Origin: an uncultured Clostridia bacterium
GTDB taxonomy: Bacteria; Bacillota; Clostridia; Christensenellales; UBA1242
Reading direction: 5' to 3'
Length of the DNA: 64,000 bases
Assembly: GCA_944350275.1 (NCBI GenBank)
Contig: CALVOK010000043.1
Location: 24,411-88,410 of the forward strand
In this document: one piece after another, positions 3,441-30,811 of the stretch
Position numbering within the stretch: the first letter of the stretch is position 1
How the letters are laid out: each line of letters begins with the position of its first letter
Notes under the pieces: generated by a model
What the model was told of the DNA's origin: nothing
Database searches by the model: none
What the model saw: only the letters and a program-made list of their open reading frames with translations
Program-made: the position numbers and the translations under genes

Positions 3441-3660
3441 GTTGATTTTTGTTGATAATTCTTATTTTTCGTTGATTTTTGTATTTTTTCGTCGGTTTTC
3501 GTTGATAATTTTAGATTTTTGTTTATTTTCGTTGATTTTTGTATTTTTTCGTCGGTTTTTGTTGATAATTTTAGATTTTTGTTTATTTTCGTTGATAATT
3601 TTAGATTTTTGTCGGTTTTCGTTGATTTTCGTTGAATTTTGTCGGTATTTTTTTATTAAT
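3441..3660. repeat. Phased array of about 21 ten-bp T-tract words (gttgattttt, gttgataatt, ttagattttt, gtattttttc, gtcggttttc, gtttattttc), including a 60-bp higher-order unit repeated twice
   Basis: Direct reading. The words stay in exact 10-bp register. 3471-3530 equals 3531-3590 except for one base. The array is T-rich on the + strand and stop-free, which explains the spurious 74-aa track ORF 3439..3663. Confidence 0.9.
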
Positions 3661-4628: not shown

Positions 4629-5417
4629 ATGATGAAAAAAGTCAAAAATTTAAACATTGTTATCACAGGCTCGTCAAGCGGGATTGGTCAGGCACTTCGC
4701 TCCTACTATGAAAGTTGTGGCAACAAAGTGCTTGGAATAAGTTTGAGCGGTGACGACTACAATGCCGACGTCTCAGATAAAGAGGCTCTTGTCAAGGTCT
4801 TTGAGGATATAAAAACAAAAGTGCCGTCAATTGATATCCTGATAAACTGCGCGGGCTTTGGTCTGTCAGGTGCAATCGAACTTATAGATGAAAAACAAAT
4901 TCAAAAGGAATATGAGGTCAACGTGCTTGGTTCGGTCTATCCTATTCAACTCGTCCTGCCTCTTCTCAGCAAAAATGGCAAGATTGTCAATATCAGTTCG
5001 GCTTGTGCCCTCTTCCCTCTGCCCTTCCGTGCATTCTACTGCTCAAGCAAGTCGGCGGTAAGTATGCTTAGCGACTGTTTGCGAATGGAACTAAGTAAGA
5101 CCTCCATCCAGGTCACCGCAATCTGCCCTTGTGATATTAAGACTAACTTCACTAAAAATAGGCAAAAAGATTTTAAAACGAATGAGCGATATGGCGAGGC
5201 TATCAGGCTCTCTGCCGAGCGAATTGACAGTCGCGAAGATAAGAGGATGAGCATTGAAAAAGCCACCAAAATCATGACGAAAATCATAAACAAAAAGCAC
5301 TTCAAACCTCAATATGTTATGGGCATGAGGAATAAATTTCTCTATCAAGTGCAAAAATTTTTCCCAAAGTCACTGGTGCTAAAAGTTATGACAAAACTCT
5401 TCTATGTGGATAGATAA
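4629..5417 (+). CDS. SDR-family NAD(P)-dependent oxidoreductase
   Basis: TGSSSGIG Rossmann motif, NCAG, catalytic YCSSK (YxxxK), 262 aa. The start could be the ATG 3 nt downstream. Confidence 0.8.
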   Translation: MMKKVKNLNIVITGSSSGIGQALRSYYESCGNKVLGISLSGDDYNADVSDKEALVKVFEDIKTKVPSIDILINCAGFGLSGAIELIDEKQIQKEYEVNVLGSVYPIQLVLPLLSKNGKIVNISSACALFPLPFRAFYCSSKSAVSMLSDCLRMELSKTSIQVTAICPCDIKTNFTKNRQKDFKTNERYGEAIRLSAERIDSREDKRMSIEKATKIMTKIINKKHFKPQYVMGMRNKFLYQVQKFFPKSLVLKVMTKLFYVDR

Positions 5418-5446
5418 GTGCGGACAACAAATATAATTTTTAAAGG

Positions 5447-5790
5447 GAACGAGCGAGAACGAGTGAGAACGAGTGAGAACGAGTGAGAACGAGTGAGAAC
5501 GAGTGAGAACGAGTGAGAACGAGTACGAGTGTACGTGTACGAGTGAGTATGTACGAGCGAGTGAACGAGTGCGAACGAGTACGAGTGTACGTGTACGAGT
5601 GAGTATGTACGAGCGAGTGAACGAGTGCGAACGAGTACGAGTGTACGTGTACGAGTGAGTGAACGAGTGCGAACGAGTACGAGTGTACGTGTACGAGTGA
5701 GTATGTACGAGCGAGTGCGAACGAGTGCGAACGAGTACGAGTGTACGTGTACGAGTGAGTATGTACGAGCGAGTGCGAACGAGTGAGTGC
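5447..5790. repeat. Purine-rich satellite: about 7 copies of the 10-bp unit gagtgagaac, then about 5 copies of a roughly 56-bp higher-order unit (gagtacgagtgtacgtgtacgagtgagtatgtacgagcgagtgaacgagtgcgaac)
   Basis: Direct reading. Higher-order unit copies start at 5521, 5577, 5633 (42-bp variant), 5675 and 5733. The reverse strand has no stop codon in any frame, which explains the spurious 142-aa track ORF 5379..5807. Confidence 0.9.
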
Positions 5791-5792
5791 AT

Positions 5793-5885
5793 GGGCTCGA
5801 AAGTCAAATTTTAAATTTCATTTAAAATTTTGTTTTGCAAACTCGTTTGCAAAACTGCTCGCAGGAGCGAGCGACTTTCGAGCCC
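5793..5885. other. Perfect four-way-junction palindromic module: a 13-bp closing stem enclosing three abutting perfect hairpins
   Basis: Closing stem gggctcgaaagtc (5793-5805) pairs with gactttcgagccc (5873-5885). Inner hairpins are 5806-5830 (11 bp), 5832-5855 (gttttgcaaac/gtttgcaaaac) and 5857-5872 (gctcgc agga gcgagc). All pairs are Watson-Crick, with at most 1 unpaired nt between helices. Confidence 0.85.
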
Positions 5886-6115
5886 AACCTCACTTTTATT
5901 TATACAAAACTCTCAAACCCACATCACTTTTATAATTTTCATGTCAACCTCGCTTTTATTTATATATAACTCTCATGTCAACCTCAGTTTTATTTATACA
6001 TAACTTTCATGTCAACCTCGCTTTTATTTATATATAACTCTCATGTCAACCTCACTTTTTATTTATACAACATTCAACCTAATCTCACTTTTATATATGT
6101 TTTTCGAGCCCACCA
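5886..6115. repeat. Tandem 34-bp repeat (caacctcgcttttatttatatataactctcatgt), about 5-6 copies, bracketed by the direct repeat ttcgagccca
   Basis: Near-identical copies at 5945-5978, 5979-6012 and 6013-6046, with degenerate copies on both sides. ttcgagccca occurs at 5878 and again at 6104. Confidence 0.85.
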
Positions 6116-6224
6116 ACTATTTAACCAATCAATCTTCCAATCAATTCTTGCTCTTATTCCACCCCTATTTTGAAAATCTATCAAAAAAGCGAGCAATGAT
6201 GAAAATCAAAGTTCGCTTTTTGTT

Positions 6225-6552
6225 GTCGGTTTTTGTTTATAAACGTCGCAATTTGTTTTAAATCATCGAGTTTTGTATGTTTACGTCGGTTTTTGTTTAT
6301 AAACGTTTGAATTTGTATATTTACGTCGAATTTTGTTGCAAATTGTTGAGATTTTTCGCAAATTGTCGAATTTTAAATATAAAGTGTCAAAATTTGTATA
6401 AAATAGTCGGAATTTGTATCAAATCGTCAAGTTTTTTTCGCAAGTCGCCGAGAATTTGTATAAAATCGTCAAAGTTCTTTGAATATCGTCGTAAATTCTC
6501 ACAAACTGTCGAGAATTTTCGTATACCGTCGAGGTTCGTCGAAAAATGTCTA
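6225..6552. repeat. Phased array of about 17 twenty-bp units (consensus roughly aaacGTCGAAaTTTTGTATa) abutting the groEL stop codon
   Basis: GTCGG/GTCGC/GTCGA/GTTGA/GTCAA cores begin at 6225, 6245, 6265, 6285, 6305, 6325, 6345 and 6365 (exactly 20 bp apart), then at 6386, 6406, 6426, 6444, 6468, 6488, 6508, 6528 and 6548. This accounts for the spurious track ORFs 6277..6573 (+) and 6419..6616 (-). Confidence 0.9.
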
Positions 6553-6569
6553 TATTTCTCTCAGCCTTT

Positions 6570-8482
<1,913 letters not shown>

Positions 8483-8783
8483 TTTTTCCTCCTGCATATT
8501 TTTATACGAATTTTATTTTTGGTTTTCCTCTTTTCGAAATGCAATTTTTTGCCTTCAGAGGATACCATTTTGCCTTTAAAGTGGCTTTAAAATCTTCGCC
8601 TCGCCTGAATGGTTAAAATCTCTAGTTGTAAAAGATTTTCCCCCCTTAAAAGCAACTTTCAAAAGTAATTATAATACTTCTGCCCTGTCTTTTGCAAACG
8701 TTTTTTTGCTTTTACCGCTCATATTGTGCCACTTTTTGTCATAAACTAATTTATCATAGCAAAGGAGTGAAAATCAACCTTAT

Positions 8784-9596
8784 ATGTCAAAATTTACCAT
8801 AAAAAATCTGTTAAAGTCTAAAAAAAATGTGTTTTTGATTGCCTTGGCTCTCTTTTTGGTGTGCGCTAGTTTGATAGCAAACTGCCTATCTCTGATGATT
8901 GTTCCATCAAGTAGCACCTCAGAGAGCGTAAGTTACAACTCGTTTTCTCTTTATATGCTCTCTCTTGCAAAGTCGCAGGTGGAGAGCGAGGCAAACTCTC
9001 TTGCTGGTGACTACCAAAAAATTGGTGCGGGCGGTTATATCTGGAAAATTGACAATTACTATCACGTCATCTCATCAGTCTATGCGAACAAAAACGACGC
9101 AACTCTCGTGCAAAACAGTGTCAAGGCAAATCAGGGTCTTGATAGCGAGATTGTTGAGGTTAACTTTAAGTCTTTCTCGCTAAACGGCAATTTCTCGGCA
9201 GATGAGAAAAAGGTGTTAACAAAGTCGCTTGCCTCATTCTACGACTTTTACCTTGCTCTCTACGACATTGCAATAAGTCTTGACACCCTAGTATATAACG
9301 AGATATCTGCAAAACTTGCCCTCAATACCGCTCATAGCAACCTAAGTAACACCGTGCGTGACTTTAAAACGGTGTTTCCATCTCCTAGTGGCGAGATTGA
9401 ACTGCTCAGTCTTAGTCTTGACAAGGCACTGAGTGTGAGCCAAAGCCTTTGCGACGAGAGCACCTCTACTCAGACATTAGCAACTGCCCTTTCTCAAACT
9501 CAAACCTTTTCATCTACCTCTCAGACACTTTCATCAATGCTAAAATACCACTACACCACAGTGCTTGATATTTACTATCAAATGATAAATGGTTGA
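8784..9596 (+). CDS. N-terminally membrane-anchored hypothetical protein (possible SPOR-like beta-sheet domain)
   Basis: 270-aa ORF with a TM helix at aa 17-38. The segment GGYIWKIDNYYHVISSVYANKNDATLVQNSVKAN loosely resembles SPOR domains. No firm motif. Confidence 0.5.
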   Translation: MSKFTIKNLLKSKKNVFLIALALFLVCASLIANCLSLMIVPSSSTSESVSYNSFSLYMLSLAKSQVESEANSLAGDYQKIGAGGYIWKIDNYYHVISSVYANKNDATLVQNSVKANQGLDSEIVEVNFKSFSLNGNFSADEKKVLTKSLASFYDFYLALYDIAISLDTLVYNEISAKLALNTAHSNLSNTVRDFKTVFPSPSGEIELLSLSLDKALSVSQSLCDESTSTQTLATALSQTQTFSSTSQTLSSMLKYHYTTVLDIYYQMING

Positions 9597-9640
9597 AATA
9601 AAAGACCTGAGTAAAAATTTAAGCAGTTTTATAAAAAACA

Positions 9641-9761
9641 CCCTTTTCGACGTTACTAGACTTTTCTCGACGTGTTTAGACGTTGGTCGACAGTTATTGA
9701 CGTTTCTTGACTTTGGTCGACGGTTGTTGACAGATTTTGACGTTTTTTGTTTGTTTTTGAT
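9641..9761. repeat. Phased 10-bp array with the T(C/T/A)GAC core (reverse orientation of the GTCRA words)
   Basis: GAC recurs at exactly 10-bp spacing ten times (9649, 9659 ... 9739): cccttttcga|cgttactaga|cttttctcga|cgtgtttaga|cgttggtcga|cagttattga|cgtttcttga|ctttggtcga|cggttgttga|cagattttga|c. It lies between convergent genes. Confidence 0.9.
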
Positions 9762-9800
9762 TGAATTTAAGTTTTTAATGCACATTTTTCCCTCCTTGGT

Positions 9801-11012
9801 TTAAAGTTCTTTAATTATCTCTCCACATTGATAAAATGACTGTTTTGCATCATCTAAGTTTGTGCTTTCTTCAATAGAATTTTGGTTTTCTTCACTAAAA
9901 TTTAAGTTTTCTTCTTTGAAATTTATTTTTTCTTCATTGAAGTTTGATTTTTCTTGAGTCAAATTTGTATTATCTTCTAAATTCGAGGTCTCTTCGCTGG
10001 CAGTGTCTAAGTTAGTTTTGTCTAGGTTTAGGTTATTTTCGACGTCAGAGTGTGAGTTGTCCGCTGAAGTCTCCGCTGTTTTAGAGTTTATGTAGGCATA
10101 GTTTTCTTCTGCGCGGTTAAGAAGAGCACCTAATATGTAAATGTACAAGTCTTTTATCTCGTCATTGTTCATCACCTGCCAAACTATATCTCGCAGGTCC
10201 TGTGCCTCAATGTAGTCAAATTTCTCAAGCAGTTCTATCTCGCTGTAACTTGTAAAGCGGTACTTAAAATCACCCTGCTTTGCTTGAGAAAGTGCTTTTA
10301 CTATGGTTTTAACTACTTCGCTGAAGTACTGCTTGCCTTTTTCGTCGTAACCCCAGTAAGAGTAGTACTGCTGAGTTTTCTTAAGCAGGTTATCTTTCAT
10401 TTCCCTCGCGTCGTGTGTGAGAGAGGATGTATGCGTATGTGCGTGTGCGTGCGTATGTACGTGTGCGGGCGCGGGTGCGGGTGATAGATTATTTATTTTA
10501 TTTTTCGACAGACAAAAATTAATTTCTTTTTCTTCTTCTTTTTCTATTTCTTTATTATTATAGGGATAATTAACTCCAATTATCTGGCAATTATCTTGAA
10601 ATATCTCTTTTTTATCTTCAATTATCTTTTTGTTTTTTTTATTGTCAGTTTTTGCCTTTTCTTCTGTTGCAAGAGTGGTTTCTTCCTCGTGGTCTAATAG
10701 GTCATTTTCTTTCTCGTCAGGGCTAGGATAATAGGGATTTCGCTCCCCTTTTTTGAAGTTTGGATTGCCTTTTTTGTGACCTTTAAGACGCTTGTCCATC
10801 CTTATACTTTTCTCAATGCTAGGCAGAAAACTTGTGATAATTGCCTGCGAAATTTGTGATAGTCCTGTAGGCTCTATCCCGCTTGACATAAAGGATATAA
10901 CCGCTTTGTATGTCTCAAGTTGATACTCCTCTGGCAGTGAATTTATTGTATTTGACCAATTGGTAAAAAACACGAAACACTCTCTTTGATAAACTTTATT
11001 TCTGTCTTTCAT
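9801..11012 (-). CDS. Hypothetical protein with an internal His/Thr/Ala low-complexity tract and a C-terminal N/E-rich repeat tail
   Basis: The start at 11012 (MKDRNKVYQ...) is preferred because the RBS aaggaggg precedes it. The protein contains PAPAPAHVHTHAHAHTHTSS and a tail of the form EEKINFKEENLNFSEENQNS. No recognisable catalytic motif. Confidence 0.6.
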   Translation of the reverse strand: MKDRNKVYQRECFVFFTNWSNTINSLPEEYQLETYKAVISFMSSGIEPTGLSQISQAIITSFLPSIEKSIRMDKRLKGHKKGNPNFKKGERNPYYPSPDEKENDLLDHEEETTLATEEKAKTDNKKNKKIIEDKKEIFQDNCQIIGVNYPYNNKEIEKEEEKEINFCLSKNKINNLSPAPAPAHVHTHAHAHTHTSSLTHDAREMKDNLLKKTQQYYSYWGYDEKGKQYFSEVVKTIVKALSQAKQGDFKYRFTSYSEIELLEKFDYIEAQDLRDIVWQVMNNDEIKDLYIYILGALLNRAEENYAYINSKTAETSADNSHSDVENNLNLDKTNLDTASEETSNLEDNTNLTQEKSNFNEEKINFKEENLNFSEENQNSIEESTNLDDAKQSFYQCGEIIKEL

Positions 11013-11141
11013 TTCTTCCCTCCTTGATTTCTTTTGCTTGGCTATATTATAGTCTAGCAATTTTTAATTTTTCAAGGTTATATGCCACAAATTATTGATT
11101 CTTTTAAAGTTTATTTTTAAGTCCTTTTTTAGCCATAAAAA

Positions 11142-11230
11142 AGATAATTCGAGAGATAATTCGCATTTTTTTGAAGATAATTGCAAGATAATTGGAGATA
11201 ATTGGAGATAAAAAAGATAAATAATTATCT
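11142..11230. promoter_or_regulatory. Iteron-like cluster of AGATAATT motifs upstream of the 9801..11012 gene
   Basis: Perfect AGATAATT at 11142, 11154, 11175, 11186 and 11196. Partial copies at 11206 and 11215, and an inverted copy aattatct at 11223. Spacings are mostly 9-12 bp. Confidence 0.6.
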
Positions 11231-11337
11231 TTTATCTTTTTTCGTGTTTTTTACTTTTCCCAAGATTTATTTTTACATATTTTATTGTTTCCAAATTCCC
11301 TCGTTTTTCCCAGTTTTTGTGTTTCTCTTCAAAATTA

Positions 11338-12966
11338 CTACTGAATTACCACCTCACCGTTGAGCCAACTGTTGAAAAAGCCCTCAAGGTCACAGTGAGA
11401 CGACTTGTTAAACGAGGCTATCATGTCGGCAGGAGTTGCGTTTTTGAAGGCAAAGTCAGTGTAATAGTCCTCTAGTGCCTTGAAAAATTTTCTATCACCT
11501 AAGGACTTTCGAATAGAATCAAACATTAGCAGTCCTTTTGTATAGGTACACTGCACATACTCTGGCTGGGTGTCGAATTTGTTAAGCGGTCTATCCATTG
11601 AGGTGTCTACACTTCCATTGACCTGAGAGTACACCCTCACAAAAGTTTTGTAACTCTCGGTGGCACTATCAATCATCGCCTTGCTGTCAACATTGTATTT
11701 TTCATTCCTCTCAAAAAAGAGCAGAGTGCTATACTCGGTAAGTCCCTCATCCATCCAGGCATGGTTATATTCATCATTGCCCACAACTCCATACCACCAT
11801 TGATGAGCAATCTCGTGTGCTATCACATAGGCAATGTCCTCTTGCGAAAGGTCGTCGCTTATCATAACAAGGTTTGGATACTCCATTCCGCCGTGGATAA
11901 AGTTTGTTTTTACAACATTTAGAGTTGAATATGGATACTCTCCGAATAAATCATTATAGGTATTAAGGGCATCGACTGCAATTTCAAGGCAGGTGTTTAG
12001 GTTATTGTCGCCTGTGTAACCGTAATAGGTCACCTTAACTAAGCCCACCTGTTGTGATTTGCTCGCAAAAATCTCGCTTAAAACAAAACAGAAATCTCGA
12101 ATATTGTCTCCGCTAACTTTTGCCATTGTCATGTCTTGAGCGGAAGTCGTGTTATTGGAATTTGTGTTATCTTGAGCGGAAGTTGTGTTATTGGAATTTG
12201 AGTTATCTTGAGCAGAGGTTGTGTTTTTGTCTGCTGGTGAGATATTGGTCTCTGACAAAACTACACCTGAAGTTGCAAGGCTAAAAGAAGATGGATAGCA
12301 AATCTCTACCTCATAGTTTGCCTGCTCACTGTAAAATGGGTCACCATTTGAGTGATAAAGGTCGGTTTTAAATCCCTCGCCCTCCTCATAGACGCAGAGA
12401 ATAGGATAAAAATTGCCAAAGTTTGTGGTGTTATTGCCATAACCTAGTCTATGATTTACATTTGCAAGAGTTGTGACAAATTCTATTGTAAAGGTAACCT
12501 GCTCGTCAGGATAGACCTCGCAAGGCAGGTTCACTTTCAGTATGTTACTGTCCTCGCCCTCAATGCTATACTCAAGATTTTCTCCGCCACCTGTCACACT
12601 TAACACTTCAATACCGCCGTAACTTTCGCCGTCAACATACACCTCATCCTCGTCCGCTATGCTGACAATAGGGTTTTTCGCACCCTCTCGAAAGGCATTT
12701 GGATAGAGGTGAAGATACAGATATGTGAACATATTATCATAATTATTGACAAACGTCACCTCCTCTCTTCCCGTTAGCGAGTGAGAGGTCTGGTCATAGG
12801 AGAGTTGCATTTTGTAACTTGAGACAGGAGTGTTGTCCTCCCTCAAACCGTTAACACATAAAATTGTCACTATCAAAATGACCGCAACAAACAAAACTAT
12901 AAGGGATATAATTTTAAATTTCTTATTTATGGTTATCTTTTTCATATTTGAAGTTGTCTTTTTCAT
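11338..12966 (-). CDS. M1-family zinc metallopeptidase (aminopeptidase N-like), membrane-anchored
   Basis: HEIAHQWWYG (HExxH) followed by WMDEGLTEY (the downstream Glu ligand). N-terminal TM helix. Internal 36-bp tandem insertion encoding NTTSAQDN(S/T)NSN. Confidence 0.85.
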   Translation of the reverse strand: MKKTTSNMKKITINKKFKIISLIVLFVAVILIVTILCVNGLREDNTPVSSYKMQLSYDQTSHSLTGREEVTFVNNYDNMFTYLYLHLYPNAFREGAKNPIVSIADEDEVYVDGESYGGIEVLSVTGGGENLEYSIEGEDSNILKVNLPCEVYPDEQVTFTIEFVTTLANVNHRLGYGNNTTNFGNFYPILCVYEEGEGFKTDLYHSNGDPFYSEQANYEVEICYPSSFSLATSGVVLSETNISPADKNTTSAQDNSNSNNTTSAQDNTNSNNTTSAQDMTMAKVSGDNIRDFCFVLSEIFASKSQQVGLVKVTYYGYTGDNNLNTCLEIAVDALNTYNDLFGEYPYSTLNVVKTNFIHGGMEYPNLVMISDDLSQEDIAYVIAHEIAHQWWYGVVGNDEYNHAWMDEGLTEYSTLLFFERNEKYNVDSKAMIDSATESYKTFVRVYSQVNGSVDTSMDRPLNKFDTQPEYVQCTYTKGLLMFDSIRKSLGDRKFFKALEDYYTDFAFKNATPADMIASFNKSSHCDLEGFFNSWLNGEVVIQ

Positions 12967-13185
12967 GTTATAATATACTAAGACTTTGTCCTTTTGATAA
13001 CTTGCAATATGGGTTTGTTTAAAAAAGTCTATGTAAAACTTGGTAAAATACTATAGAATTAATAGAGTTTAAAGTTACAAATTTAACAGGCAAAATTTTT
13101 AAACTAACTTAATCTAATTTTTCAACCTATTTAAAATTGCTTGTAAAAACGAGGCGAGTATGATAGAATTATTTTTGGAGGAATT

Positions 13186-14628
13186 ATGGCTTTTTGTAAA
13201 TATTCTACTGAATTTATAGCAAGTTCTAAGACAGAAATCGACAATATTTTTATTAATGACTATCTGCCTTTTGCTCAACCTCAGTTTGTGGTTGTATATA
13301 TCTATGGACTTTATCTTTGCAACAGCACCTCTTTTGATAACTCGCTGGAAAACTTCGCAAAGACTCTTAATATGAGTGAGGAGGATGTCGTTGGCGCATT
13401 CGAGTTTTGGGAGGAACAGGGACTTGTTCAGGTTTTAAAGACTAACCCTGTCCAAGTGGTATTTGTTCCGCTTAAAAATGTTCTAACCGCAAATAAACTG
13501 TATAAGCCTGACAAGTATACCACGTTTAATCAGCAGGCTCAGGATATTTTCCAAGGAAAACGGTCAATCACCAAGCATGAGTATGAGGAGTACTATGATT
13601 TTTTGGAACGTTATCACGTCGAGCAAGAGGCGCTTCTTATGATTATGCAGTACTGCGTCAACACAAAAAAGCAGGCTGTGGGATATAACTACATCCTCAC
13701 CGTCGCAAAAAATTGGGCATATGAGGGTATAACTACCGCCTTGCAGGTGGAAGAAAGACTGCGTGCCTTTGAAGAAAAAGACCCAAATCTCCTTGAAATT
13801 TTTAAGGTGCTGGGAATTAAACGTTCACCTTACGTCGAGGAGAGAGCGCTTCTCAATAAGTGGCTGAGCGACTATGGTTTTGGTCTTGAGGTTATACTTC
13901 ACGTGTGCAAGTCCTATAACAAGAAGGCAAGGCTAAATTTTGAAAGACTTGACGGAATTTTGACAAAATACTACGAAATGAAACTTATGTCGGCAAAAGA
14001 AATTGACGACTTTGAAAGCGAAAAACAGTCGCTTTACTCTCTTGCCAAAGATGTCAACAAGGCAATTGGTGTGTACTATGAAAATCTGGAAACCGTTGTT
14101 GAGACATACATATTAAAATGGATAAATATGGGTTTTGAGCGGGCTCTTCTTGTGGAGATTGCCTCATACTGCTTTAAGAATTCTATCCGCACACTTGAGG
14201 GCATGGATAGGACTGTGGCAAAGTTTTATAAACTTGGACTTTTATCACTGTCCGCCTTTAACGAATATATGGGACAAATTCTCGCTGATGATGACAAGAT
14301 AAAAAATATACTTTTCTCGCTTAAAATTGAACGTGGAGTTAGCACTTTTGACAGAACAAACTACAAGATTTGGACTGAGGAGTGGAACCTTCCTGGTGAT
14401 GTCATTGACTATGCTGTCAGCATTTCAAAAGGCAAGAATAACCCTATAAAATACCTCTCAAAAGTGCTTGCCGACTATCACGAAAAGGGAATAAAGACGG
14501 TCGACGAGGCAAAAAATAACTCACCTATTGAAGAAAAAGTCTCATCAAAAAATAACTTCTCTGGGCGAAGTTACTCAAAAGAAGAAATCAATGCCCTATT
14601 TCAGTCCATTGATGAAATTGATATTTAA
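13186..14628 (+). CDS. dnaB: Replication initiation and membrane attachment protein, Bacillus DnaB-type (DnaD-like domains; not the replicative helicase)
   Basis: 480 aa, with size and position directly upstream of dnaI as in Bacillus dnaB-dnaI. Repeated DnaD-like helical segments (e.g. NYILTVAKNWAYEGITT and KYLSKVLADYHEKGIKT). Confidence 0.65.
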   Translation: MAFCKYSTEFIASSKTEIDNIFINDYLPFAQPQFVVVYIYGLYLCNSTSFDNSLENFAKTLNMSEEDVVGAFEFWEEQGLVQVLKTNPVQVVFVPLKNVLTANKLYKPDKYTTFNQQAQDIFQGKRSITKHEYEEYYDFLERYHVEQEALLMIMQYCVNTKKQAVGYNYILTVAKNWAYEGITTALQVEERLRAFEEKDPNLLEIFKVLGIKRSPYVEERALLNKWLSDYGFGLEVILHVCKSYNKKARLNFERLDGILTKYYEMKLMSAKEIDDFESEKQSLYSLAKDVNKAIGVYYENLETVVETYILKWINMGFERALLVEIASYCFKNSIRTLEGMDRTVAKFYKLGLLSLSAFNEYMGQILADDDKIKNILFSLKIERGVSTFDRTNYKIWTEEWNLPGDVIDYAVSISKGKNNPIKYLSKVLADYHEKGIKTVDEAKNNSPIEEKVSSKNNFSGRSYSKEEINALFQSIDEIDI

Positions 14629-14977
14629 TTTGATAAAAATATATATAAAAATTCATTAATAAATTAAAAATTAATTTCAAATAAAAAAATATTATTTAAA
14701 AATAAGTTTGATTATAAATAAATTTAATTTGTTTTATTAAATAATTTTAATTAATTAAATAATTGTAAATAAATTTTAATATTAACCTATTTTTTAATAA
14801 AAATTTAATAAAAAATGTCTTTATTTGTCATATTTTTCAAGTTTTTTAGTAATTTTTATATATTTTTATTAAATTTATGTCATTTTATATTGATTTTTAC
14901 TTAAAATACACTTAAAATATTATTAAAGGCAATTAAAATATTATTAAATAAAAAACAGCATTTTAAGGGAGAAAATT

Positions 14978-15877
14978 ATGAAAACGTCTGTTATTGAAAA
15001 GGCAAAAAAAATTATTGATAACCGAAGATTTGATGCCGAAAATGAAGCGCTTAAAAACAAGGTAAAAGCATTTGAGGACAAAACATTTAAAGAGTTATAT
15101 CAAGACTACACCACAAAGATGATTGAATCTTGCAGAGAGGGCGAGGCTCTTTCAAGCAAGGTCCAAAATATCAAAAAGAGATATCAAAAGCGGTTAAAAG
15201 AGATTGGTATTGCCTCCATTGACCCTGACTATTACTGCAAAAAATGTAATGATAGCGGTTATGTCGAGGGCAAGTACTGCTCCTGTCTTATTAAAGAAAT
15301 TAACAACATCTTGAAAAAGGAGAGCGGGTTTGACAGGCTTGAAGAGTTTGATAAAACTGATTTCTCCATATTTGAAAATGCTGATGAGATGAAGAAGTTA
15401 TATGAAAAAATGAAGGCATGGTGTCACTCTAAATTTGATAAGAATTTGATTTTTATTGCTGGCAATACTGGAGTGGGTAAAACTCACCTTATCAAGTGTA
15501 TGGCAAACGAACTTATCAATCTAAATCATGTCGTTTTGCTCACCTCCTCGTTTGCTATGCATCAAGATTTTGTTAAGAGTTACTCGACGCGTGACCTTGA
15601 CGAGAAGAGTAGTTTGCTTGACAGATATCTTAACTCTGAGGTGCTTTTTATAGACGATTTGGGAACAGAACTGAGGCAACCTAACATCACAATAAATTAT
15701 CTCTATCAGGTGATAAACGAAAGGAAGATGAATAGACTGCCGACAATTATAACCTCAAATCTTGACCTATATGAACTCAAGGACTATTACGACGAGAGAA
15801 TTTCAAGTCGAATTATTGATAAGGCATCATCAATCTGTATATTTGTCAAAGGCAAAGATTTGAGACTTGTAAAGTGA
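14978..15877 (+). CDS. dnaI: Helicase loader DnaI (DnaC/IstB-like AAA+ ATPase)
   Basis: N-terminal Cys cluster CKKCNDSGYVEGKYCSC, Walker A GNTGVGKTHL, Walker B LFIDDLG, and ITSN sensor motif. 299 aa. Confidence 0.85.
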   Translation: MKTSVIEKAKKIIDNRRFDAENEALKNKVKAFEDKTFKELYQDYTTKMIESCREGEALSSKVQNIKKRYQKRLKEIGIASIDPDYYCKKCNDSGYVEGKYCSCLIKEINNILKKESGFDRLEEFDKTDFSIFENADEMKKLYEKMKAWCHSKFDKNLIFIAGNTGVGKTHLIKCMANELINLNHVVLLTSSFAMHQDFVKSYSTRDLDEKSSLLDRYLNSEVLFIDDLGTELRQPNITINYLYQVINERKMNRLPTIITSNLDLYELKDYYDERISSRIIDKASSICIFVKGKDLRLVK

Positions 15878-15907
15878 GATTTTTCAAAATAAAATAGTCT
15901 GCAAACA

Positions 15908-15962
15908 TTTTTGTGCGGATGAACTGGGTGCGAGAGTTTTTGTGCGGATGAACTGGGTGCGA
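15908..15962. repeat. Direct repeat, 2 x 26 bp (tttttgtgcggatgaactgggtgcga), period 29 bp, running into the adjacent palindromic module
   Basis: Identical copies at 15908-15933 and 15937-15962. The second copy supplies the 5' strand of the closing stem at 15957. Confidence 0.9.
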
Positions 15963-16049
15963 CTTGCATAAGTCGAAAATCCTTTTCGACTTATATCACG
16001 TTTTTTAAAAAACGTGATGGTTGCTTTTGTAAGCAACCGCAAGTCGCAC
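15957..16049. other. Second perfect four-way-junction palindromic module: an 11-bp closing stem enclosing three abutting perfect hairpins
   Basis: Closing stem gtgcgacttgc (15957-15967) pairs with gcaagtcgcac (16039-16049). Inner hairpins are 15968-15994 (12 bp, ataagtcgaaaa/ttttcgacttat), 15995-16018 (24-nt perfect palindrome atcacgtttttt/aaaaaacgtgat) and 16019-16038 (8 bp, ggttgctt/aagcaacc). There are zero unpaired junction nucleotides. Confidence 0.85.
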
Positions 16050-16110
16050 ATTCAAAGAACAATTTTCTTACAAAATGTCTTTATATTATCATTATCTATA
16101 AAACACAATA

Positions 16111-16141
16111 AAAAATGCATGATTTTACTCATGCGTTTTTT
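16111..16141. terminator. Bidirectional Rho-independent terminator between dnaI (+) and the MBL hydrolase gene (-)
   Basis: Stem gcatga/tcatgc (16117-16122/16129-16134), flanked by an A-run on the left and a T-run on the right. Confidence 0.65.
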
Positions 16142-16145
16142 AATG

Positions 16146-16760
16146 TTATCTTGTTAAAAACCTCTTAAACACGGCAATGTTTTTCATTTGTGTTTGATAG
16201 GTGCTTTTCTCGCCATGACCGCTATAAGCCTCCTCAAAGGTAAGTTTTTCAAGTTTGCAAAGGCTCTCAAACATTTCATCCTTGCTGGAGTTTTTAAGGT
16301 CAGTTCGCCCTATCCCCTTTTTAAACAACACGTCACCTGAAAAGAGTTTTCCGTCTATTAAATAGCACTCACAGCACTTGCTATGCCCTGGACAATAGTA
16401 GCAGTCAACCTTAAACTCGTCAATCTGGATGGTCTTATCTTCGCCTATAAACTCAAACCTTGAAAAGTCGTCAATTGTCTCGCCATGCTTTGAATAGATT
16501 GCGACAGGGTCGGTCAAGGTGTCTTTTATCTTTTCGCTTGCATAGATTTTGCATTTGTAAAAGTTTGCATAGTCTAGCACGTGGCAGGAGTGGTCGTAAT
16601 GTCCATGAGTTAGAAGTATGCCGACGACTCTATTGTTTCCCACTGCCTTTATCAAATCATACAAGAAGGCACCACCATCAACTATTAGGCATTTACCATT
16701 TTTACTTACAATATAGACATTTGCATCCAAATATTGACCTATAAGTTTTTTTATTTCCAT
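16146..16760 (-). CDS. MBL-fold metallo-hydrolase (glyoxalase II-like)
   Basis: LTHGHYDH (HxHxDH) motif, downstream His/Asp ligands, 204 aa. Confidence 0.8.
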   Translation of the reverse strand: MEIKKLIGQYLDANVYIVSKNGKCLIVDGGAFLYDLIKAVGNNRVVGILLTHGHYDHSCHVLDYANFYKCKIYASEKIKDTLTDPVAIYSKHGETIDDFSRFEFIGEDKTIQIDEFKVDCYYCPGHSKCCECYLIDGKLFSGDVLFKKGIGRTDLKNSSKDEMFESLCKLEKLTFEEAYSGHGEKSTYQTQMKNIAVFKRFLTR

Positions 16761-19808: not shown

Positions 19809-20426
19809 ATGGTTATTGGTGTAGATATTGACGGAGTGCTGTGTAATCTTAATAGGTATACATGGAAATATTTTAAAAAATTCTTAAAGGAGAAAAAAAT
19901 TCCTTTTAAATTTAACAAGTCAAAGGTAAAGTTTTATCAGCAATTCAATGTTACACCTGAGATTGAAGATGAATTTTGGGAAAGGTATGCTTTTGACTAT
20001 GCGAAAAAAGTGCGGATGAGCAATCATGCAAGTTTTTATATGAACAAACTGCATAAGGCTGGGCACAAACTTATTATTATCACCTCAAGGACTTTCTCCT
20101 ATCTTGAAAATGAGAAAGGCGAAAAAATGCGTGAGGCGGTCAAAAAGTGGCTTGCGAAAAATAAAATTTACTATGACAAAATATATTTTTGTTATGACAA
20201 AGCAAAGGTTATCCGCGAGGAAAAAGTGGATGTTATGCTTGAGGATAGCCCTAAAAACATTGAAAACCTATCAAAGATTGTCCCTGTCATAATCTTTAAA
20301 AACCCAGCAAATAAATTCTGCAAAGGTAAAAATAAAATCTTAATAAATGGGTGGAAAGATTTAATTGGGGGGACACCCAACTTTCTTAACGCGGGCACGA
20401 CTTGCAAGGGCAAGCCTAACCGCTAA
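19809..20426 (+). CDS. HAD-superfamily 5'(3')-deoxyribonucleotidase-like phosphatase; the last ~21 codons are supplied by the inserted repeat element
   Basis: N-terminal DxDGV motif (VIGVDIDGVLCN), IIITSR (motif II) and a downstream acidic motif (MLEDSPKN). The reading frame runs into the element beginning at 20364. Confidence 0.7.
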   Translation: MVIGVDIDGVLCNLNRYTWKYFKKFLKEKKIPFKFNKSKVKFYQQFNVTPEIEDEFWERYAFDYAKKVRMSNHASFYMNKLHKAGHKLIIITSRTFSYLENEKGEKMREAVKKWLAKNKIYYDKIYFCYDKAKVIREEKVDVMLEDSPKNIENLSKIVPVIIFKNPANKFCKGKNKILINGWKDLIGGTPNFLNAGTTCKGKPNR

Positions 20427-20809
20427 AAGACGCATTTCTTCGAGTCCCTCTCGAAATGCTTTCGGTTTCCCTCCCAGACCCCTTTCCGACCCCCTTGAAA
20501 TTTACTCTGTAAATTTCTGCGTAATTTGGAGTCTTACCGACTATATTTCCATGACGCATAGTTTGTAAAATATGTAAATAATATCTTTAGGGACACCCAA
20601 CAAACCTTACGTTCGACGACTGTCCGATGTAGTGTATTTAAAATATAGATTACACTGACCGCTCTCGAACCAAATGTTCGACGACTGTCCGATGTAGTGT
20701 ATTTAAGATATTATTGTGGTTTCCGCTCTCCCAAATAAGAAAGTGAAAGCGGATAATCCGCCCGCTCTCGAACCAAATGTTCGACCAAACTAAGTTTGGT
20801 CCCCCCAAT
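20364..20809. mobile_element. MITE-like non-coding element, 446 bp, with 11-bp terminal inverted repeats and a 5-bp target-site duplication
   Basis: ATTGGGGGGAC at 20364-20374 is the exact reverse complement of GTCCCCCCAAT at 20799-20809. ATTTA flanks both ends (20359-20363 and 20810-20814). Internal direct repeats are a 31-mer at 20611 and 20676, a 24-mer at 20659 and 20762, and a 12-mer gggacacccaac at 20370 and 20590. The element is locally GC-rich and has many hairpins. Confidence 0.6.
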
Positions 20810-29266: not shown

Positions 29267-30811
29267 TTATTCGTTCTCGTCCTCATAGTCGTCGTAGATA
29301 TCTGTTTTTTCAAGGTCAGTGTCGTCGTACATATCGGTTTTTTCAAGGTCAATGTCATCTTCAATGGTATCTTGCTGTTCAATGTTGTTATTTTTGAATT
29401 TTGCCATCAAAAAGCCCTTTGAACCATAGAGAATTATCTTTTTAAAGTTGCCCTCATATGAAAAACCTAACTCGTTAAAGTGGTACTCTATAAGTTTGCT
29501 GAACTTGTCGAGATACTCCTCTTTTGTCTTTTTGTCAGTGATATTTTGCTTTCTAAAATAGGCATTCTCACTGTTACAAATATATTTTAAAAGGTGGATA
29601 TAGTAATTTGGATGATTTTTTAACATATAATTTTGATAAAAATTTGTCAAATCTTTGTCGTATTTTAATATTCCGTCTTTATTTCTAGTCTTTACGGTAA
29701 AGAGAGAAAAGTCGTATTTATCCTGAACATACTCACCCTTGTCATTCCTTTGACCTTGCTTTAAGGTTATGATTGTGTTCTTTTTTGACTTCGAGTTGGA
29801 ATAATAGTCGCCGTACTTCAACTGCTCTCTCTTCTTGCCGTCTTTTGCCTCTAACTCTTTGAAGTACTCATTTAATATTTGAACAAGTTCTCTCTCTGAC
29901 GGCTTTTTCTCTGGATAAATTAGTGCGAGTCCGTCAAGTGTTCTTGTGTTTTCTATTGCGTTTTCATAGGATATGCTTGTCTTAAAGCCACCGCTCGTTG
30001 CCTTTTCCTCAAAAAATGCATAGGATGAATTGACTTTTTCTTTCAATTTTTGGAGCATATTTTCATCAATATGTCCTCTGTACTCAAATATTCTCATTGG
30101 CGAAATGATTTTAACCTTGCTTGTGACGGCATAGAGGTCGCGGTCAGTCTTAAAGTGAATATCAAATCCGCCGTCGGCATTAGTTGTGCAAGGAACGCAG
30201 ACATAGTTTGACTTGTCATTGTCATATCCTATCACGACAACACTACGTTTTCCGCCATACTCGGCATCAACCACAGGGTTCAGGTCTGCAGAAAAGACGT
30301 CCCCTATCTTAATCTCTCGCTCAGGGCGGTAGTATGGGTTGTCAACCTTTCTAAACATGGTATGATTACCACATCGGACATAGTTTAAGGCACTTGCAAG
30401 CGTGAATTTAGAGTCAATTTTAAGAAAATCTTGTATGCCCTCAATTCCCTCGTTATACATGGCATTTATAATTGTAAATTTTAATTTCTTAGAGAGTTTT
30501 ACCGCTGTATTGTAAATCTCATCTTTTTGTCTGCCAATTTCAGAGTACTTCATGCTGATGTAGTCTAGGTAGTATTTTTGCAGTGCCTGGATAATTCTGT
30601 TATTGTTATTTAGCACCTCAATATGATTATTGTTGAAACTTATTAGCACTTTGTCATGAGTCTCTGGATTAAACAGGGTTAGACGGGTAAAATTTATGTC
30701 GTCGGTATTCTCATTGGTATATGTTATCACCTTGTAATCGTTGTCAAGAACCATACGAACAATATTTAAAAGTTCCTCATAAGTCAAATTTATCTTCATA
30801 CTTTTCTCCAT
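29267..30811 (-). CDS. Large protein with an embedded MazF/PemK-like domain, unknown N- and C-terminal domains and an acidic repeat tail
   Basis: aa ~166-262 read EIKIGDVFSADLNPVVDAEYGGKRSVVVIGYDNDKSNYVCVPCTTN...VKIISPMRIFEYRG. This parallels the canonical MazF at 20812 ([25 protein letters not shown]...AITSQ). The tail is DDIDLEKTDMYDDTDLEKTDIYDDYEDENE. The start could instead be the ATG at 30799. Confidence 0.7.
   Translation of the reverse strand: MEKSMKINLTYEELLNIVRMVLDNDYKVITYTNENTDDINFTRLTLFNPETHDKVLISFNNNHIEVLNNNNRIIQALQKYYLDYISMKYSEIGRQKDEIYNTAVKLSKKLKFTIINAMYNEGIEGIQDFLKIDSKFTLASALNYVRCGNHTMFRKVDNPYYRPEREIKIGDVFSADLNPVVDAEYGGKRSVVVIGYDNDKSNYVCVPCTTNADGGFDIHFKTDRDLYAVTSKVKIISPMRIFEYRGHIDENMLQKLKEKVNSSYAFFEEKATSGGFKTSISYENAIENTRTLDGLALIYPEKKPSERELVQILNEYFKELEAKDGKKREQLKYGDYYSNSKSKKNTIITLKQGQRNDKGEYVQDKYDFSLFTVKTRNKDGILKYDKDLTNFYQNYMLKNHPNYYIHLLKYICNSENAYFRKQNITDKKTKEEYLDKFSKLIEYHFNELGFSYEGNFKKIILYGSKGFLMAKFKNNNIEQQDTIEDDIDLEKTDMYDDTDLEKTDIYDDYEDENE

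Follow-up and report, generated by a model that had tools for sequence, protein, structure and literature searches.

The window, by which we mean the entire 64-kb stretch of DNA analysed, is ordinary chromosome (~36% G+C) from an uncultured Clostridia MAG lineage. Its genes include groES-groEL, tadA, a replication gene with a DnaB_2 domain, dnaI, tyrS, ileS, the RNase R gene, tmRNA and tRNAs, and no transposase, recombinase or reverse transcriptase gene is present among its ORFs. Two of its intergenic gaps hold the subject of this work, short modules in which a closing stem encloses three perfect hairpins. Module 1 lies between a short-chain dehydrogenase (SDR) gene, for which an exact-protein look-up returned no record, and groEL, while module 2 lies between dnaI (+) and the gene of a metallo-beta-lactamase-fold (MBL) hydrolase (-). 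Both gaps separate convergent genes, as had been stated in the original prediction. The features are listed here by position in the window.

4629-5417, + strand: short-chain dehydrogenase gene (SDR), left neighbour of module 1
5447-5790, + strand: CGAGTG-type complex tandem array with periods of 10, 14, 56 and 98 nt, abutting the left side of module 1
5792-5886, no strand: module 1 as a whole, 95 nt, forming a perfect four-way junction (closing stem 14 bp; hairpins 11, 10 and 6 bp)
5792-5805, no strand: module 1 closing stem, 5' arm, TGGGCTCGAAAGTC, paired with 5873-5886
5806-5830, no strand: module 1 hairpin 1, AAATTTTAAAT / TTC / ATTTAAAATTT
5832-5855, no strand: module 1 hairpin 2, GTTTTGCAAA / CTCG / TTTGCAAAAC
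5857-5872, no strand: module 1 hairpin 3, GCTCGC / AGGA / GCGAGC
5873-5886, no strand: module 1 closing stem, 3' arm, GACTTTCGAGCCCA, the final 11 nt of which occur again at 6102-6112
5887-6112, + strand: 34-nt tandem array to the right of module 1, ending in a second copy of TTTCGAGCCCA (6102-6112)
6570-8183, - strand: groEL, right neighbour of module 1
15908-15962, + strand: perfect 26-nt direct repeat in two copies, 15908-15933 and 15937-15962, of which the second enters the module 2 closing stem by 6 nt
15957-16049, no strand: module 2 as a whole, 93 nt, forming a perfect four-way junction (hairpins 12, 10 and 8 bp; no linkers)
15957-15967 and 16039-16049: module 2 closing stem, 11 bp, GTGCGACTTGC/GCAAGTCGCAC
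15968-15994, 15995-16018 and 16019-16038: module 2 hairpins
16109-16142, no strand: bidirectional intrinsic terminator of canonical form, made up of an A-run, a 14-bp hairpin and a T-run, in the stretch that separates module 2 from the MBL hydrolase gene

The stems and hairpins of module 1 match the predicted coordinates base for base, and the pair T5792-A5886 lengthens the closing stem from 13 to 14 bp. The linkers between its hairpins are single T residues; all pairs are Watson-Crick and single bases split the helices, again as predicted. Module 2 was correctly described as having the same topology, here without linkers, and pairing in both modules is 100% Watson-Crick. Since the closing stem surrounds three abutting hairpins, either DNA strand, or RNA from either, can fold into a compact, fully stacked four-way junction. 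Folded as DNA, both modules reach minimum free energies of -37.7 to -40.2 kcal/mol on both strands, compared with about -10 +/- 2.5 kcal/mol for dinucleotide shuffles (z = -9.9 to -13.5), which places the two loci far beyond the controls that had been suggested for them. Folded as RNA, the identical four-way junction is the minimum-energy fold of either strand.

A structural scan for a closing stem with at least three perfect hairpins inside it matches modules 1 and 2 only in the 64-kb window. Applied to 2.56 Mb of shuffled sequence (40 Markov shuffles of the window), to unrelated viral contigs totalling 1.04 Mb and to 146 kb from module-free relatives, the same scan gives no match. We also tried the pattern GACTTGC-N55-85-GCAAGTC as a member finder; its matches in viral contigs were due to chance and were kept as a negative control, and all 120 of the 120 viral sequences with this module 2-type 7-bp outer inverted repeat fold weakly, at -12 +/- 4 kcal/mol. 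Short words common to closing stem and hairpins (e.g. CGACTT in module 2) were given no weight because words of 5-6 nt are expected by chance at such lengths. The sequence of module 2 is unchanged in three independent assemblies (L001-L003) and that of module 1 in one (L025). Both loci are genuine and not assembly artefacts, and the doubts about chance and artefact that accompanied the prediction do not hold.

The repeats beside the modules were predicted to run into the closing stem at both loci. This is true of module 2, where the overlap is 6 nt, and not of module 1, where the left array only abuts the stem and ends near 5790. The 26-nt repeat beside module 2 is absent from relatives, and the right-hand array of module 1 varies in copy number between assemblies, being 128 nt longer in L025. 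Flanking direct or tandem repeats were not seen in relatives with orthologous modules, and we therefore regard them as local duplications at a structure-prone site, outside the element itself. For the same reasons (arrays that vary between assemblies and are missing from relatives with an orthologous module), an origin-like or iteron reading of 5400-6570 was rejected; in addition, cumulative GC skew declines across the window without a lasting reversal.

Three smaller observations concern the surroundings of module 1. The 11-nt TTTCGAGCCCA brackets the right-hand array, one copy being part of the module's 3' arm. The left (5447-5790) and right (5887-6112) arrays are unrelated to each other. 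AGTGAG (5782-5787) and CTCACT (5890-5895) add 6 more bp to the stem, past a small internal loop.

Members in related genomes

We collected syntenic contigs anchored on DnaI from GTDB genomes, public assemblies and metagenomes, which are referred to below by L numbers, and scanned the relatives' contigs in two ways, by perfect-stem logic and by minimum free energy. The search for further copies, which had been put forward as a check, yielded 20 intact and 4 partly eroded modules in ~12 related genomes whose DnaI is 57-82% identical to that of the window. Each of the 24 has exactly three hairpins within a closing stem of 10-14 bp, linkers of 0-3 nt (mostly 0-1) and loops of 3-5 nt, with a single loop of 7 nt. 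Module length has a median of 95 nt and a range of 82-124, and half of the intact modules (10/20) measure 93-96 nt. Pairing is Watson-Crick in 825 of 832 pairs and G-T in the other 7, while terminator-like hairpins from the same genomes have ~8% G-T, a figure from a rough set obtained by a search that itself favours G-T. Density runs from 2 per 64 kb in the window up to 5 per 20 kb in L156.

The family appears to be confined to this group. More distant relatives (DnaI 27-51%), sampled over about 600 kb, yielded one weak 79-nt candidate (L169) and otherwise nothing convincing, and relatives with DnaI below ~57% are equally AT-rich, yet hold at most that one weak candidate. No module matches Rfam, either at the gathering threshold (window plus 8 loci) or at E values up to 5 (window 5300-16300), and ARAGORN reports true tRNAs and tmRNA only. 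We found no description of a closed three-hairpin repeat in the literature, in agreement with the original statement, which knew of no described bacterial repeat family with this architecture. The two loci are members of a family of intergenic elements, ~95 bases long and not described before, that is carried by a group of uncultured Clostridia of the gut.

Gaps between convergent genes account for 7 of ~14 independent loci. Tandem and divergent gaps also hold members, some of these immediately upstream of promoters, so that the convergent siting noted originally is preferred and not required. Three sites recur: the groEL 3' end (module 1, L021, L152, L015/L023), the 3' end of an M1 peptidase gene (L006, L011a, L146b, L156a, L156b) and the dnaI/MBL gap (module 2, L011b, L004, L152b). 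At least three conserved members lie a few to tens of nt upstream of promoter-like sequences, picked by eye, or between divergent genes (L019, L146c/L156c, L146d/L156d). A link to replication genes was considered and dropped: modules are found after groEL, the M1 peptidase gene, tRNA-Trp and tyrS as well, and the dnaI neighbourhood had seemed relevant only because DnaI served as the search anchor.

Is the module simply a terminator? In L011 it very probably is, in both directions: the closing stems of L011a and L011b carry A5-6 and T5-6 tracts, and their gaps have no other terminator. These two are the only ones among the 20 intact modules with U-tract flanks, which are lacking at modules 1 and 2. 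A separate canonical terminator adjoins the L021 module, another fills the L146 SDR-groEL gap, and the terminator at 16109-16142 begins 60 nt downstream of module 2, between it and the MBL hydrolase gene, which places module 2 upstream of the terminator that serves dnaI. With 18 of 20 modules lacking a U tract and canonical terminators as neighbours, most modules are therefore not the terminator.

Sequence turnover and selection on pairing

Relationships between copies were judged from alignment scores compared with shuffles, expressed as z. Modules 1 and 2 are not among the pairs with z>3 and thus have no significant sequence similarity. The earlier view that they are unlike in sequence is therefore upheld, yet both belong to one homologous family spread across a clade, module 1 through its match to the inverted L021 module and module 2 through a closing stem shared with the L152, L011b and L006 modules. 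Module 1 matches the reverse complement of the L021 module, from the same SDR-groEL gap, with z 7.9 (1.7 in the forward direction), and its hairpin 2 has homologues in hairpin 2 of that module and in one hairpin of the module in L152. The L152 module, likewise 93 nt, also repeats the closing stem found in module 2 (GTGCGACTTGC in module 2, GGGCGACTTGC in L152). The GACTTG(C) core of the module 2 stem is present in L006, L011a and L011b, and L015/L023 have the variant GGCTTGC.

Other pairs show the same elements moving, persisting and recombining. The L005 module matches the inverted L004 module (z 16.8) although their loci differ, and the L015 and L023 modules are orthologues (z 23). L011a and L011b, paralogues in one genome (z 8.8), have in common a GACTTG stem, A/T tracts and one hairpin, and are mosaics of common and unshared parts. 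Sorted by sequence, the closing stems form four or more unrelated groups, and no tag is common to all of them. Taken together, the closing-stem and alignment homologies define one homologous set, whose members have reached different loci, are passed down at a given locus and can change orientation. Since copies in one genome have their architecture in common and share little sequence, whatever reads them would sense shape and not sequence.

Orientation agrees among assemblies of the window species (the window and three others for module 2, the window and one other for module 1), and inversion is seen between species only. Identity as an inverton was rejected on the grounds of this single orientation and the lack of a recombinase gene nearby. 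We also considered a stem swap, with the module 1 closing stem as an inverted form of the GACTTGC group, and dropped it because inverting a palindromic segment cannot exchange the stem arms.

The comparison of orthologous gaps for structure-preserving changes, another check proposed at the outset, was most informative in L146 and L156. These two are close to saturation at dnaI four-fold degenerate sites (51.5% identity), while 88.5% identity is seen in the module that separates their M1 peptidase gene from the replication gene with the DnaB_2 domain (Pfam PF07261). Changes affect 7 of 82 stem positions and 4 of 14 unpaired positions, so that stems are 8.5% changed compared with 48% for four-fold sites. 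Three pairs have changed on both sides (A-T to G-C, C-G to G-C and A-T to T-A), one pair is broken and no wobble pair has been gained; both immediate flanks are unalignable as far as the promoter blocks. A second orthologous pair from the same two genomes, downstream of tRNA-Trp, behaves in a like manner. A compensatory C-G to T-A change is also found between L015 and L023, and likewise between L005 and L004. No loop motif and no unpaired nucleotide is conserved. Pairing is thus shown to be under purifying selection, while loops and linkers evolve almost neutrally. Such stem conservation with compensatory changes argues against a neutral by-product and against a purely selfish element.

DNA-level remodelling of modules occurs as well. 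In L015 and L023 the left flank is 98.5% identical, yet the interior of one hairpin has been replaced, with four mirrored changes including indels. This speaks for viewing the modules as a mutational by-product without function, built and kept perfect by template switching at quasipalindromes and by local duplications, inverted or tandem, within AT-rich intergenic DNA. That quasipalindromes become perfect through template switching is established (PMC7202029), several hairpin arms are themselves palindromic, and the 8-nt AGGCAAAA spans stem and loop in one L156 hairpin and is all stem in a neighbouring L156 module. Tandem duplications at module borders and the presence of several other repeat families in these genomes point the same way. 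The by-product view nevertheless leaves unexplained the invariant three hairpins and the length mode of 93-96 nt, stems 5-6 times more conserved than four-fold sites beside drifting loops, and the near-absence of modules in equally AT-rich relatives with DnaI below ~57%. We consider it very unlikely.

These results also divide an argument made originally, that perfect pairing speaks for selection or generation at the level of DNA. The part that stands is that only 7 G-T pairs among 832, together with the free orientation, point to a constraint acting alike on both strands, which a typical one-strand RNA would not show. The part that falls is perfection merely generated by a DNA process, given the purifying selection on stems, the compensatory changes and the free loops. 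Strand symmetry fits two readings, RNA that folds whichever strand is transcribed, or folded DNA.

It fits poorly with a discrete gene for a stable small RNA, tRNA-like or Y-RNA-like, with its own promoter. A compact fold of ~95 nt that is very stable as RNA is what such a gene would offer. Against it, there is no tRNA or Rfam match, no conserved promoter or terminator is found around the modules, orthologues differ in orientation, unpaired nucleotides are not conserved and G-U pairs are nearly absent; a small RNA gene is, of the explanations we weighed, a highly improbable one.

Two observations were made next to the L015 module. An 860-nt non-coding stretch downstream of groEL and upstream of the module (L015 2632-3260) is dense in GC-rich hairpins, and 130 nt beside the module are 98.5% identical in L023, more than the groEL four-fold sites (87%).

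Known elements and possible roles

The closest functional analogues of the modules are the REP/BIME elements of enterobacteria, and with them the REPINs of Pseudomonas. All are palindromic, intergenic and multi-copy, occur in either orientation and vary in location between relatives. REP/BIME elements are likewise enriched at gene 3' ends and between convergent genes, and have been proposed both as 3'UTR stabilisers or partial terminators and as protein-binding sites at the DNA level. They differ in that a REP is one imperfect hairpin, 20-40 nt long, whose conserved sequence includes a GTAG or CGTC tag at the stem base, and REPs are linked to RAYTs, whereas modules are closed three-hairpin junctions of 82-124 nt with four helices, perfect pairing and no sequence conserved within a genome. 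No RAYT (Y1/HUH) transposase is found among the window ORFs or in the Pfam lists of the other contigs.

Correia/NEMIS, ERIC, BOX, RUP and Bacillus bcr1 elements are dispersed intergenic sequences of ~100 nt with terminal inverted repeats and stable folds, some with compensatory changes. They are defined by sequence and come with target-site duplications and related IS, none of which three was found for the modules. The 10-14 bp closing stem does amount formally to terminal inverted repeats, a MITE feature. The modules could be selfish, non-autonomous elements of the MITE/REPIN kind, mobilised by a transposase elsewhere in the genome and without host function. Related stems and hairpins across loci and genomes (the GACTTGC, GGC..GAAAG and ACTATGTGATG groups) would follow from this, as would a module shared by L004 and L005 at different loci in opposite orientation, up to five copies in 20 kb of L156, the existence of eroded copies and the frequent breakage of assemblies at or beside modules (L004, L001, L025). 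What such elements leave behind is lacking: there are no target-site duplications (no direct repeat in the flanks of 14 modules), closing-stem arms never recur at the gene-sized spacing of a parent IS in any locus examined, and no transposase, recombinase or reverse transcriptase appears in the 64-kb window or in the Pfam lists of other contigs. The near-identical copies typical of MITEs are not seen either; paralogues are mosaics, too unlike within a genome for recent transposition from a master copy, and orthologues have been kept by purifying selection over nearly saturated synonymous divergence. For these reasons we judge the selfish explanation unlikely.

Bidirectional intrinsic terminators resemble the modules in their convergent gaps, Watson-Crick stems and folding on both strands, and L011a and L011b even have the A- and T-runs. 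In an intrinsic terminator a U tract comes straight after a single short hairpin, whereas 18 of the 20 modules lack this tract and several stand beside a separate canonical terminator.

Structurally, the closest analogues are the inverted terminal repeats of parvoviruses and the telomeres of Streptomyces. In parvovirus/AAV terminal repeats and Streptomyces telomeres an outer palindrome surrounds small inner ones and the strand folds into a multi-way junction. Those ends of linear replicons are terminal, act as single-stranded replication primers and have two inner hairpins with conserved sequences; the modules are internal to the chromosome and have three. Integron attC sites keep their structure while their sequence varies, and are recognised as folded single-stranded DNA. 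They are single imperfect hairpins with extrahelical bases and R/L boxes, and are accompanied by gene cassettes and an integrase, whereas the modules have none of these and have housekeeping genes as neighbours. A retron non-coding RNA was rejected because there is no reverse transcriptase in the window or among flanking genes. Each family tested (REP/BIME, MITE, terminator, attC, retron, inverton and Rfam) fails at least one defining feature. The distinctive property of the modules is that the family is defined by shape and not by sequence, with clear selection on a four-way junction that either strand can form.

Our tentative preference is for a REP/BIME-like element that acts through its shape, via RNA, and marks the boundaries of transcription units. 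Modules would serve as punctuation between such units, and transcription entering from either side would produce a very stable RNA junction at the 3' end. By analogy with REPs, this junction may hinder 3'-to-5' exonucleases and limit read-through; REPs have been described as combined 3'UTR terminators and stabilisers, and where they separate convergent genes their presence correlates with the two neighbours being more highly expressed (bioRxiv 10.64898/2026.03.23.713779). A need to fold from both strands would leave only Watson-Crick pairs tolerated, because a G-U on one strand is an A-C on the other. In the L011 lineage, the closing stem would have gained A and T tracts and the module would double as a bidirectional terminator. 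New copies and variants may arise by DNA processes (duplication to new sites, inversion, hairpin replacement and template switching), and the stable structure may itself provoke the tandem duplications at module borders. Several observations count against this reading. The lack of a U tract at most modules and the separate canonical terminators beside several of them do not suit a role at RNA 3' ends, and such a role is also ill-suited to promoter-proximal and divergent members, unless their promoters lie further out than predicted.

Those same members favour a DNA-level element, which we rank second, as a close rival, and regard as possible though less probable. Here, the module would take one of two folded forms, a double junction resembling a cruciform when the DNA is negatively supercoiled or a four-way junction when it is transiently single-stranded, and be read by a putative structure-specific protein, with HU-like or RuvA/RecU-like proteins, a topoisomerase or a recombinase as candidates. 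The role could be a topological or boundary signal between transcription units, or a signal in replication or recombination. Strict Watson-Crick pairing and free orientation are as this predicts, and so are loops without a conserved motif. Three hairpins in every case, with linkers of 0-3 nt, produce a Holliday-like junction, the sole branched form that stacks fully. Conserved members also occur in probably untranscribed spacers (with promoters placed by eye), upstream of promoters or between divergent genes, where negative supercoiling builds up. The preference for convergent gaps is harder to reconcile with extrusion, which positive supercoiling there should oppose, and extrusion is kinetically demanding for a nested palindrome with outer arms 70 bp apart. 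The RNA-acting, REP-like boundary element keeps first place.

A broader and rather doubtful proposal spans both readings. The modules may be shape-coded genome punctuation without a sequence code: Holliday-junction-like four-way junctions of ~95 nt, held by purifying selection at dozens to hundreds of intergenic sites, and serving either a junction-specific protein on extruded or single-stranded DNA or as the first natural branched terminators or RNA barriers that work either way round.

Bacterial intergenic repeats are normally defined and detected by sequence. An architecture that is conserved while sequence turns over between copies is consequently missed by repeat finders and RNA-family libraries. 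Should the functional form be DNA, the modules would give bacterial chromosomes a rare natural example of four-way-junction DNA under selection; should it be RNA, they would be a new branched 3'-end or boundary element that is independent of orientation. In addition, the family provides a clean natural data set on the evolution of nested palindromes, covering compensatory flips, hairpin replacement, inversion and border duplications.

Other repeats and genes

The genome of the window is unusually rich in intergenic repeats. Degenerate intergenic tandem repeats lie at 3466-3646 and 6231-6430, with 30-nt units (TTTTCGTTGATAATTTTAGATTTTTGTCGG) and 20/40-nt units. In the DUF6291 gene (window 9801-11060), a TGCGTATGTACGTGTGCG repeat at 10432-10471 encodes a His/Thr/Ala-rich stretch and is similar to the GTACGTGTACGAG units in the array that lies upstream of module 1.

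A recurrent, structured-looking motif occupies ~20330-20560 of the window (-); its conserved core runs from TAGCGGTTAG through a variable hairpin to CGTGCCCGCGTTA ... GGGTGTCCCC. It is also present at L008 15603 and 15810, L011 4806, L015 3021, L023 512 and 6290, and L152 5481, at different intergenic loci across the clade. Rfam gave no significant match to it, and it may represent either a further family of repeats or a non-coding RNA specific to the clade. Repeats of a second dispersed family, built on the unit ATCGGACAGTCGTCGAACATTTGGTTCGAGAGCGG, are found at 20600-20800 of the window (-) and at L005 10907-11235. At the L005 site they take up the whole dnaI-MBL gap in reverse-complement form, with direct and inverted copies nested about a large hairpin.

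Three tandem 240-bp units at L009 5700-6420 each start with the 3' part of tRNA-Lys(CTT), the gene for which lies at ~6347-6422 on the minus strand. The units look like remnants of repeated integration or of attachment sites. Finally, a 514-aa ORF at 29267-30811 of the window contains an internal PemK/MazF toxin domain (residues 170-262); it far exceeds ordinary MazF toxins in length, and its conservation extends to relatives (L019 12183-13688).
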